From the NCBI GenBank assembly GCA_963933695.1, contig CAWVXN010000001.1:1-30636 (forward strand): DNA of 30,636 nucleotides. Direction: 5' to 3'. Of the stretch, positions 26,281-30,636 are shown one piece after another. The notes below the pieces were generated by a model. The model worked only from the letters and a program-made list of their open reading frames with translations. It was not told where the DNA came from and searched no databases. The number at the start of each line of letters is the position of its first letter. The first letter of the stretch is position 1. The translations under genes were made by a program, and so were the position numbers. The DNA is from an uncultured Myxococcales bacterium. Lineage in GTDB: Bacteria; Myxococcota_A; UBA9160; UBA4427.

Positions 26281-27687
26281 CTACGACTGAATGACGAGTT
26301 TCGAGAGACTCGTTTTGCGGAGATTCGTTTTCTGGATGGTCCGTACCAGTTCAGCCACCTTCTCGGTATTGGTCTCGAAGGGGTTATTGCAGATCACACG
26401 AACGTTCAGAAGATTTCCTAGCCGAATATTTGACCAATCGAGGTCGTATTGGATCGAGTGCTCACGAGCCAACTTGATGAACTCGCCACGCATGCGCGCC
26501 CGAGTGTCCTGAGGCGGCTCAGTCTTCGCCTGATCCACCTCTTCGTCGGTAAATAGCCGATCGACAGCCCCGTTGCGCTCAAGCAGGTAATAGAGCCCAC
26601 GATCGCGCTGAATGTCATGGTACTGAAGATCCATCATGAATACCTTGGGATCGCTCCACGACGTGCCGTGACGGTCAATGTACGATTCGATTAAACGTTT
26701 CTTGATAATCCAGTCGATCTTTCGATCGAGTTTGCTCGGGTCCGTATCCAAGCAATCCAACACGTACTGCCACATCTTCACAGCCAGCTTGTGCTCGTCA
26801 CTCACCGGATATTGCTCGATGTACTTTTGCGCCATTTCGCAGTATTCGCGCTGCATTTCGATGGGCGAGTATTCTCGGCCACTATCGAGTCGCAGCTTTC
26901 GCTTGCATGTGACGTCGTAGGTTATGTCCTTAATCGCCTTCACTGGGTTACGAAGGGTGAAGTCCTTGTTGATGTAGTTGTCTTCAATCATTTGGAGGAC
27001 AACAGAGCATGTACCCACCTTGATGAAATTGGTGTACTCGCTCATATTCGAGTCGCCCACGATCACGTGGAGTCGGCGGTATTTTTCGCGATCTGCGTGG
27101 GGTTCGTCCCGGGTATTGATAATCGACCGGTCGTTCGTCGTCGTACCCGAAATCTTCTGATAAATATGCTGCGCTCTCTGGCTCACGCAGTAGTGAACCC
27201 CGTCTTGCGTCTGAAAAACCTTGCCCGCACCGGTGTAAATCTGTCGAGTCACAAGAAATGGAATCAGTTGTTCGGCGAGGTAATAAAAATCAACATCGCG
27301 GTCGACAAGATAGTTCTCGTGACAGCCGTAGCTGTTGCCAACAAAATCGGTGTTGTTCTTGAATATTGAGAGTTTTCCGGGAATGCCTTCTTCACGAATT
27401 TTCGCTTCCGCATAAAGCTGCAAGTCTTCGAGAATTCGCTCGCCAGCCTTATCGTGAATGATCAACTGCTTGGGCGAAGCACACTCGGGCGTCGCGTACT
27501 CTGGGTGGCAACCGGTATCCTGATAGAAACGGGCACCATTCTCCAGGAATACATTGAGAAAATGCTCAGTCGTAATCAGCTTCTCAAAAAGGAATCGGAT
27601 CGCCTTTTCAACGGGAAGTGTCTTTCGCCCCTCTGGCGTAAAGATGATCCCGTACTCTGTTTCCACTCCGTAGATGCGTTTTTGCAT
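26281..27687 (-). CDS. pafA: Pup--protein ligase
   Basis: RIYGVETEYG, NGARFYQDTGCHPEYATPEC, FKNNTD..GNSYGCHENY, IINTRDEPHAD..KYRRLHVIVGDSNMSE, DLQYHDI, PPQDTRARMRGEFI. Start is ATG 27687 or GTG 27699. Confidence 0.95.
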   Translation of the reverse strand: MQKRIYGVETEYGIIFTPEGRKTLPVEKAIRFLFEKLITTEHFLNVFLENGARFYQDTGCHPEYATPECASPKQLIIHDKAGERILEDLQLYAEAKIREEGIPGKLSIFKNNTDFVGNSYGCHENYLVDRDVDFYYLAEQLIPFLVTRQIYTGAGKVFQTQDGVHYCVSQRAQHIYQKISGTTTNDRSIINTRDEPHADREKYRRLHVIVGDSNMSEYTNFIKVGTCSVVLQMIEDNYINKDFTLRNPVKAIKDITYDVTCKRKLRLDSGREYSPIEMQREYCEMAQKYIEQYPVSDEHKLAVKMWQYVLDCLDTDPSKLDRKIDWIIKKRLIESYIDRHGTSWSDPKVFMMDLQYHDIQRDRGLYYLLERNGAVDRLFTDEEVDQAKTEPPQDTRARMRGEFIKLAREHSIQYDLDWSNIRLGNLLNVRVICNNPFETNTEKVAELVRTIQKTNLRKTSLSKLVIQS

Positions 27688-27742
27688 CTTTTTTACCACT
27701 CATTCGACCGGATCAGTCGAACCCTCTGTGTTTTGTCCGTCG

Positions 27743-28444
27743 CTATCCGTTGTCCAGCATTACCCTCACTTCTTCGACAGAGAGCCGAGTAAACTTGCGA
27801 CCTGGCCTCGTCCTATCCATGAGACATACCTCAAGAGTCGTTTCAGTAAGGTTTGAGCCTCTTTCTGACCCCGAATCAAGTGCTTTTTTTCCCATCCTGA
27901 CCGCATCGGCAGTGCTGAGGCCTGCCTGATAGTTGCTCGCCAGCCAAGTTTCCACATCGGCTACGTTACCCCCGATCACGCAGTAGTTGGCGTGATCGCT
28001 GATGAAACCATCGAAATTGACACGGTAGAGTGAGTTCTTCCGGTGGTCTTCCCAGCGATCATCGCCGACCTCCGCCACGATGATTTCAATCTCGAGCGGC
28101 TTCATCTCACGGGTGAACACTTCCCCAATAGCCTGGGAGTAGGCATTCGCCAAAGCCTGGCCCGCCACATCCTCACGGCTGTACGCGTAGCCCTTGGTAT
28201 CCGCAAAGCGGACGCCGATTTTTCGGAGCTGGTCAAATTCACTGAACTTCCCAACCCCGGCGAAAGCAATTCGATCGTAAATCTCGCCGACTTTCGAGAG
28301 GCTCGTAGCATTCTCGGCAACCAGGAGGACGCCCCCTGCAAACTCCAGGGCGACGATTGACTTCCCTCGGCTAATTCCTTTACGAGCGAATTCCGCCTTG
28401 TCGGCCATGATTTGCTCGGGCGAAGCGTAGAAGGGCATGCTCAT
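27743..28444 (-). CDS. prcA: 20S proteasome alpha subunit (actinobacterial type)
   Basis: MSMPFYASPEQIMADKAEFARKGISRGKS, KVGEIYDRIAFAGVGKFSEF, GYAYSREDV, KPLEIEI, LEVCLMDR. ATGA overlap with prcB. Confidence 0.95.
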   Translation of the reverse strand: MSMPFYASPEQIMADKAEFARKGISRGKSIVALEFAGGVLLVAENATSLSKVGEIYDRIAFAGVGKFSEFDQLRKIGVRFADTKGYAYSREDVAGQALANAYSQAIGEVFTREMKPLEIEIIVAEVGDDRWEDHRKNSLYRVNFDGFISDHANYCVIGGNVADVETWLASNYQAGLSTADAVRMGKKALDSGSERGSNLTETTLEVCLMDRTRPGRKFTRLSVEEVRVMLDNG

Positions 28445-29288: not shown

Positions 29289-29495
29289 TTACTGGCCTCC
29301 CCGCTGGACGTAGTTCTTAACGAACTCTTCGGCATTCTCTTCAAGAACCGAATCGATCTCTTCCATCAAGGAGTCCATGTCTTCTTTGAGTTCTTCACCC
29401 TTTTTGGCCATCTTCTGGCCTCCTTCGGACTCGGCCTCTGGAGAATCACCGCCATCTCCCTTGGACTTCTTCTTCTGTTCACCGGCTGCTGCCAT
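29289..29495 (-). CDS. pup: Prokaryotic ubiquitin-like protein Pup (GGQ type)
   Basis: MAAAGEQKKK...DMDSLMEEIDSVLEENAEEFVKNYVQRGGQ-stop, located between dop and prcB. An alternative start at ATG 29555 has the better SD. Confidence 0.95.
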   Translation of the reverse strand: MAAAGEQKKKSKGDGGDSPEAESEGGQKMAKKGEELKEDMDSLMEEIDSVLEENAEEFVKNYVQRGGQ

Positions 29496-29596
29496 CCAAA
29501 TCGAAGCTGAACTATTTGAGTCATTCCGGGAATATTGATTTATAAATCGTGCCATAGGATGTTACCTCTGTCGCCATTTCGACTACGAATAGCTTA

Positions 29597-30636
29597 TTAA
29601 AAATTCAGGTTAGCCAGCAGTTCGGACGCAGAACTCGACTGATTCAACAAATCCTCGACATGTGCTCTACTGCCTTTAAGCGGCTCACTCATCATTATTC
29701 GCCTGACAGGTTCCTCGCCCACAGAGAAGGAGATCGAGTCCCAGTTGACTCCGAATACCTCCTTAGGAAACCTCCGCAGGCACTCACCCCGAAAGAAAGC
29801 TCTCGTATCGACCGGCGGGCGGTGAACTGCCTCTATAATCTCATCGTCAGTGCAGATCCTTTCCATACGGCCTTCTCGCTCCAGCATATAGTAAAGGCCT
29901 TTATCGGGCCGTGTGTCGTGATACTGAAGGTCGAGCATCTGTACTTTCGGATCTTCCCAATCGAGGCCCTTGCGTTCAATGAAACTCTCAAGAAGGAGCT
30001 TCTTGGCTACCCAGTCTATTTCTCGAGCCAGGTCCATCGGATCTTCCTGGAGAGATGTCATGACATGCTGCCACTTGTCGAGCACGTCCATCGCCACCGG
30101 ATCCAACTTGTTCCTCGCCGCGTAGGTCAGCGCCATTTCGAGGAACTCGTTCTGCATCTGAATCGCGGTCATGCGCTTCCCATTATCAAGCTGCAGTTCG
30201 GCTTTTAGTGTGGGATCGTGAGAGACTTCCTTAATTGACCTAACCGGATTGCTTAGCGAAAGGTCTCGGTCAATTGCGCCATCTTCAATCATCGACAGGA
30301 TAATCGCAGTTACACCGTTCCTGAGGTAAATCGTGTATTCGCTCATATTCGAGTCGCCGACAATCATGTGGAGACGTCGATATTTCTCTCTATCTGCGTG
30401 AGGCTCATCCCTGGTATTGATAATTGGGCGCTTGACCATCGTATCCAGCGCGACTTCTGTCTCAAAGAAATCGGCACGCTGGCTTATCTGAAAGTCACAG
30501 GGGTGATTTCGATTCTCGCTCCCCACCTTGCCAGCACCGCAATAAATTTGGCGCGTGGCAAAAAAGGGCAGCAAATTTTCGACAATACGCTTGAATGAAG
30601 TACGGCGGTCCATGAGGTAATTCTCATGACAGCCAT
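29597..30636 (-). CDS. dop: Pup deamidase/depupylase Dop (3' part; the 5' end is beyond the window)
   Basis: The frame continues to the edge as YGCHENYLMDRR. Dop-type motifs: FQISQRADFFETEV, DLQYHDTRPDKGLY, PPVDTRAFFRGECLRRF, WDSISF, EPLKGSRAHV. Double TAA stop. Confidence 0.92.
   Translation of the reverse strand, partial: GCHENYLMDRRTSFKRIVENLLPFFATRQIYCGAGKVGSENRNHPCDFQISQRADFFETEVALDTMVKRPIINTRDEPHADREKYRRLHMIVGDSNMSEYTIYLRNGVTAIILSMIEDGAIDRDLSLSNPVRSIKEVSHDPTLKAELQLDNGKRMTAIQMQNEFLEMALTYAARNKLDPVAMDVLDKWQHVMTSLQEDPMDLAREIDWVAKKLLLESFIERKGLDWEDPKVQMLDLQYHDTRPDKGLYYMLEREGRMERICTDDEIIEAVHRPPVDTRAFFRGECLRRFPKEVFGVNWDSISFSVGEEPVRRIMMSEPLKGSRAHVEDLLNQSSSASELLANLNF

Follow-up and report, generated by a model that had tools for sequence, protein, structure and literature searches.

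The window analysed in this paper is the whole of a 30,636-nucleotide contig (CAWVXN010000001.1, here called C1) from a metagenome-assembled genome (MAG) of an uncultured Myxococcales bacterium (GCA_963933695.1), a MAG of 732 contigs and 3.67 Mb that is 88.65% complete with 2.2% contamination. At its right edge, positions 26281 to 30636 very likely represent the 3' five-sixths of a six-gene Pup-proteasome operon, arc-dop-pup-prcB-prcA-pafA, carried by the core chromosome of this uncultured member of the Myxococcota. Gene content, gene order, conservation of motifs, chromosomal setting and inheritance throughout the host's class can be observed directly, and the operon is probably functional. 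A known system is thus extended to a new host class, and no new system is added.

According to the open reading frame (ORF) listing and its translation, dop, pup, prcB, prcA and pafA are co-directional on the minus strand of the window and are followed by a 136-codon ORF and mreB. The stop of prcB and the start of prcA overlap as ATGA, so that both the arrangement and the overlap agree with the original prediction. Families were assigned with the NCBIfam equivalog models and their curated cut-offs, with Pfam as a second library. Every complete operon gene in the window exceeds its NCBIfam equivalog cut-off, and Pfam agrees. The operon had also been described as intact, which holds only in part. 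Five genes are recognised by the family models; however, dop runs off the window edge, and positions 26281 to 30636 contain five of the six genes, with arc located on another contig of the MAG, C442.

An arc/mpa gene had been expected just beyond the right edge, and the proposed rightward extension located it. In the genome search, arc was found at 740-2590 of C442, encoding 616 residues with a TIGR03689 score of 742.1 (cut-off 504.75). The protein aligns with Mpa of Mycobacterium tuberculosis (7px9) at 664 bits over residues 61-616, and its C-terminus is GQGQYL. The first 134 codons of dop lie downstream of arc on the same contig (2742-3143). When both contigs were placed on L012 (DUCT01000160.1), an 87-kb contig of a related MAG, C442 corresponded to 1876-5017 and the reverse complement of the window began at 5061, indicating that the contigs meet at the right edge of the window, about 43 nt being absent between them.

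Within the window, dop (Pup deamidase/depupylase) is represented by its C-terminal 345 codons (30634..29597, minus strand), the 5' end being cut by the contig end. This fragment, which starts with GCHENYL, scores 424.9 with the Dop model TIGR03688 compared to 343.2 with the PafA model TIGR03686, and 420.9 with PF03136. It remains below the Dop cut-off of 492.3 only through the loss of 149 residues; in L012, the full-length orthologue reaches 583.6. The N-terminus of Dop, encoded on C442, contains a segment of about 35 residues that PafA lacks, and the PafA model matches Dop only from position 41. The Pup-protein ligase gene pafA ends at 26281 and starts at 27699 (GTG, 472 aa) or 27687 (ATG, 468 aa), also on the minus strand. 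The ATG is likely the true start, since relatives and P0001 align from residue 5. PafA scores 562.2 with TIGR03686 (cut-off 551.3) and aligns with PafA of Corynebacterium glutamicum (4b0t) at 353 bits, with the FYQDTG catalytic Asp aligned to LYLDVG; this position is Asn in 4bjr, the trapped construct of C. glutamicum PafA.

Dop and PafA are 46% identical over 331 residues and share a 31-residue core, IINTRDEPHADREKYRRLH.IVGDSNMSEYT, encoded at 30332-30424 and 27031-27123, respectively. Throughout the class this core is unchanged, or almost so, in both paralogues; within single genomes its nucleotide identity is 0.862 on average and up to 0.968 in some. Gene conversion between the two genes was considered and is not supported overall: no clear concerted evolution can be seen, the fraction of same codons being 0.671 within genomes versus 0.603 between them, and the core is class-wide.

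The tag gene pup lies at 29495..29289 on the minus strand, or begins at 29555 if an upstream ATG is used. Its product scores 59-59.7 with TIGR03687 (cut-off 41.45) and 70.7 with Pfam Pup (cut-off 27). The two candidate starts give proteins of 68 residues, beginning MAAAGEQKKK, and 88 residues. The MAA.GEQK start is conserved in relatives and matches the MAQEQ start of M. tuberculosis Pup, making 68 residues the probable length of the real Pup. Its alignment with M. tuberculosis Pup (7px9_G, 48 bits) runs from end to end and includes ...VLEENAEEFV.NYVQ.GGQ, and the C-terminal halves are near-identical. The C-terminus is YVQRGGQ, with the GGQ that had been read initially, and because of this ending deamidation by Dop would be needed in the host genome, also as proposed. 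It would not be needed in many relatives, since the terminus varies within the class, being QRGGE in 44 of 75 loci and QRGGQ in the other 31. Dop is kept by all of these loci, including those of the GGE type.

Both subunits of the 20S core are complete: prcB (beta subunit, 29265..28441) and prcA (alpha subunit, 28444..27743), each on the minus strand. PrcB scores 285.7 with TIGR03690 (cut-off 191.9) and PrcA 282.1 with TIGR03691 (cut-off 139.05). PrcB aligns with the Rhodococcus subunit 2h6j at 224 bits and with the M. tuberculosis subunit 2jay at 199 bits. The mature beta chains of these structures begin at PrcB residue 52, between HG and TTV, which indicates a 51-residue propeptide and places Thr1 at Thr52 of the ORF. 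Asp17 and Lys33 are present in the same alignment. PrcA aligns with M. tuberculosis PrcA (3h6f) at 214.9 bits, with SLSK aligned to SLQK, the site of the activator-pocket Lys. The catalytic residues and the pocket Lys named in the original prediction are therefore confirmed by these alignments. A third proteasome-family gene of the MAG is located on contig C196.

Host setting and distribution

Family searches verified the BamD, MltG, PgpA and PilT genes previously listed for the window, which also encodes RecA, AlaS, IspG, CinA and an Mrp antiporter. Downstream of the operon, mreB (25431..24388, minus strand; NF010539 score 509.8) is a conserved neighbour, and in L012 ftsK and lolA are found upstream of arc.

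A locus scan with one genome per species yielded 450 loci, the best 80 of which (PafA 86-100% identical) were used for synteny. All of these best 80 are from MAGs labelled Myxococcota, Myxococcales or Deltaproteobacteria, with some labelled Spirochaetaceae; the relatives are Myxococcota MAGs, in support of the expected diderm host of deltaproteobacterial grade. In tblastn searches with the window proteins, the order arc-dop-pup-prcB-prcA-pafA was found in nearly all of the 80 loci, and mreB lay no more than about 2 kb downstream of pafA in approximately 65. Additionally, 12 kb of the window are collinear with L012 at 93% nucleotide identity. A chimeric join between pafA and mreB, which the original prediction had allowed for, is ruled out by this recurrent adjacency together with the collinear region. 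Several MAGs labelled uncultured Spirochaetaceae or Spirochaetales (L018, L019, L023, L025 and L030 among others) have a locus of the Myxococcota type, with PafA 91-93% identical and the same synteny, and are probably mislabelled records.

Between pafA and mreB lies the small ORF of 136 aa (26111..25701, minus strand), whose single hydrophobic segment precedes a tail of coiled-coil-like character. Conservation is weak: tblastn places a counterpart here in about 30 of the 80 loci, at 29-79% identity. No Pfam or NCBIfam family matched the ORF, and an Atlas search yielded nothing telling.

The distribution counts below refer to samples, and the lack of a match means that none was found in the genomes searched. 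All 41 of the nearest relatives, drawn from 34 genera in 12 families, have Pup-ligase genes (PF03136), most often two of them separated by about 3.3 kb. Among 300 genomes sampled across the phylum, 45 of the 47 from the host's order and all 10 from a sister order have the canonical ligase pair. Outside the host's class, only eight genomes of this sample gave matches, all weak and partial (105-130 bits, in frames of 545-640 aa), and these may represent the Plesiocystis type; no canonical PafA turned up among the sampled genomes of other Myxococcota classes. Bacterial-type PrcB was detected in 92 of the 101 class genomes sampled and in 73 of the 77 of high quality.

Proposed function and regulation

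The activities of the operon products are proposed by homology to the M. tuberculosis system. Dop would deamidate the C-terminal Gln of Pup, converting GGQ to GGE, and PafA would phosphorylate the resulting glutamate and ligate Pup to lysines of target proteins. A hexamer of ARC/Mpa would bind Pup through its N-terminal coiled coils and dock its C-terminal GQYL into the PrcA pockets, so that the substrate could be threaded into a PrcA7-PrcB7-PrcB7-PrcA7 core. The Thr1 sites of PrcB, freed by autocleavage of the 51-residue propeptide, would then cut the substrate. Dop may also strip Pup from substrates. Transcription would probably start from a sigma-54 promoter 79 nt before arc, with an enhancer-binding activator switching the operon on.

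This predicted sigma-54 promoter is well supported by sequence. A -24/-12 element, GGGCACGGTCTTTGCT, is located at 661-676 of C442, 79 nt before the arc ATG. Sites matching at least 10 of 11 positions occur at -55 to -160 of arc in 56 of 66 relatives, and one lies at -298. Among plus-strand matches in 1.21 Mb of loci, 54 of 59 fall within the same bin, the background being about 0.003-0.004 per 510 nt. When 12 upstream regions were aligned (mean column identity 50%), complete invariance was confined to four blocks: GGCAC, T.GC.T, the ribosome-binding site AGGAG, and ATGAG. A gene for RpoN (442.8 bits) is present in the genome, as are those of at least 11 sigma-54 activators. No sigma-54-like site was found in the window itself, nor before arc in L100, an ENA metagenome contig (MUNK22-1 scaffold_505) with the operon at 1678-8404. 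The operon is compact, and no minus-strand terminator-like sites were found inside it. The sigma-70 and terminator scans gave chance-level results, and an Rfam search of the operon and C442 found nothing. The absence of pafBC after pafA, noted previously, is borne out by the ORF listing, as the 136-aa ORF and mreB take that position both here and in relatives. In the genome, the single WYL gene is located on contig C322, unlinked to the operon.

Pupylation without degradation is known in Actinobacteria. The mark might likewise be mainly regulatory in this host, as in the proteasome-less Corynebacterium, with the 20S core fed chiefly in another way. Besides this precedent, the GGE-ending Pup of the 44 loci described above would be ready to ligate, and PafA is the best conserved of the compared proteins: median identity across loci is 88.9% for PafA, 80.3% for MreB, 74.6% for ARC, 70.1% for the C-terminal part of Dop and about 66% for PrcA and PrcB, although the PafA figure is inflated by the choice of loci by PafA similarity. 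A mainly non-degradative role is nevertheless improbable, as throughout the class arc, prcB and prcA share a single, jointly inherited operon with pup, dop and pafA, and the GQYL motif of ARC, the pocket Lys of PrcA and the catalytic triad of PrcB are all kept.

Several observations weigh against the reading as a complete, functional and activator-switched degradation operon. The dop gene is divided between two contigs, about 43 nt being unassembled, and its intactness is taken from relatives; the MAG itself is incomplete and highly fragmented (88.65%, 732 contigs). No activator gene is linked to the operon, and no conserved upstream activator site was found within 250 nt of arc. Bpa/PafE (PF10759) was not found in this incomplete MAG, and no control genome matched that model either.

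A broader proposition, evenly balanced in our estimation, is that the whole operon is an anciently fixed core trait of the class, which has been rewired to sigma-54 and is switched by an activator instead of following the logic of PafBC and DNA damage, and that the label 'actinobacterial' understates its range. If this is true, tagged proteolysis would be activator-switched, for example in starvation or developmental signalling. The breadth of the ligase family in metagenomes (6489 clusters at 50% identity, E no greater than 0.001), together with the L100 operon, would then imply that the label is too narrow.

Origin and comparison with known systems

The system is textbook-actinobacterial, and two further features could suggest a foreign operon, either an actinobacterial or Nitrospirota fragment introduced by mis-assembly or mis-binning, or a recent horizontal cassette. 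These are the contig break inside dop and a total GC of 0.50-0.58, below both the neighbouring genes (0.56-0.61) and the genome (0.614). However, the GC at third codon positions (GC3) is host-like, 0.59-0.65 in the operon compared to 0.61-0.73 in the neighbouring housekeeping genes; the low total GC is due to codon positions 1 and 2, that is, to amino-acid composition. The 12 kb shared with an independent 87-kb contig, the recurrent pafA-mreB adjacency and the class-wide presence of the system also stand against a foreign source. Moreover, the closest PafA outside the class, that of L100, is only 61% identical (ARC 55%), in an operon with the same six-gene order and different flanks, and identities to the actinobacterium Nonomuraea are lower (PafA 49%, PrcB 46%, PrcA 47%).

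The tree is in line with these comparisons. It was built by FastTree from 151 rows and has many unresolved forks, with Nonomuraea (a chromosome filed as a plasmid) as its sole labelled actinobacterial anchor; the row 'L102_Dop' is an artefact, being the same gene as L102_PafA. The PafA sequences of the class form one clade (support 100), sister to the L100 metagenomic lineage (98) and outside the 54-row clade (99) that contains Nonomuraea PafA. The Dop sequences of the class also form one clade (100), and L100 is the nearest relative of both class PafA and class Dop. Neither class clade falls within the clade of the actinobacterial anchor. Host-like GC3, class-wide presence and separate PafA and Dop clades argue against recent transfer from the sampled actinobacterial group, and the tree points to no particular donor. 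Recent horizontal transfer was thus rejected as an explanation, and a foreign operon of either origin is considered highly improbable. There is next to no likelihood that the locus is of the UBact type, with UBact or a different Gram-negative variant as its tag. A diderm host and the similar gene order of UBact loci would fit, but the tag exceeds the Pup cut-offs of both NCBIfam and Pfam, and its alignment with M. tuberculosis Pup covers the full length.

The operon is therefore best compared with the system of M. tuberculosis and Rhodococcus, with which it shares the same six components, the arc...dop-pup-prcB-prcA order and the GGQ terminus of Pup. The likeness extends to the GQYL tail of Mpa, the pocket Lys of PrcA, the propeptide and Thr1, Asp17 and Lys33 of PrcB, and the catalytic Asp of PafA and Dop. 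Unlike in that system, the host here is diderm, and the six genes form an unbroken series in which pafA comes directly after prcA. Also in contrast to Actinobacteria, pafBC is unlinked and a conserved predicted sigma-54 promoter precedes arc.

Outside Actinobacteria, proteasomes are sporadic, with Nitrospirae as an example (Barandun et al. 2012, PMC3511204). The Pup-proteasome locus of Leptospirillum is thought to have been transferred from Acidimicrobiales (De Mot 2007, as cited in PMC3511204). Both Leptospirillum and the present host have a complete locus of the actinobacterial type in a Gram-negative lineage. Unlike the origin proposed for Leptospirillum, the class studied here has its own PafA and Dop clades with L100 nearest, in a comparison that contained no Nitrospirota-labelled sequence.

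Within the Myxococcota, the nearest known case is Plesiocystis pacifica, likewise a host of deltaproteobacterial grade with Pup and a Pup-ligase family gene. The Pup/PafA loci of this species and of Rhodopirellula are without linked proteasome genes, and four transmembrane segments are inserted in their ligases (Iyer, Burroughs and Aravind 2008, PMC2588565). In contrast, the ligases here, 468 and 494 aa long, are of the soluble type, and their genes are linked with arc, prcB and prcA. Extra divergent genes of the Pup-ligase family, in frames of 520-700 aa and scoring 100-300 bits, were noticed in G038, G016, G029, G037 and G303 and in eight genomes of the same phylum; these may be the membrane-inserted, Plesiocystis-type ligases of PMC2588565. 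In the literature searched, no paper was found in which pupylation or the 20S proteasome is connected with Myxococcota.

Every gene of the operon already receives its name from public annotation pipelines, and the understanding of how the Pup-proteasome system works is unchanged. The known host range becomes wider, as approximately 90% of sampled genomes in a diderm Myxococcota class have the complete system, and a Gram-negative setting with a different promoter logic is on offer for comparative study.

Other genes in the window

Four consecutive ORFs of 237, 420, 274 and 145 aa occupy 4519-8058 on the plus strand, none with an NCBIfam or Pfam match. A tRNA gene (6622-6693, minus strand) overlaps the start of the third, and the call of at least this ORF is doubtful for that reason. 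The lysyl-tRNA synthetase (22499-24151, minus strand) is of the class I, archaeal type (TIGR00467 score 476.9, cut-off 147.55) and not the usual bacterial class II LysS. A CDP-alcohol phosphatidyltransferase is encoded at 8055-8759 on the minus strand, with the synthase models for archaetidylinositol phosphate (140 bits) and phosphatidylinositol phosphate (132.9 bits) as best matches, both below their cut-offs. It could point to the synthesis of inositol phospholipids, which would be a second trait more familiar from Actinobacteria and archaea.

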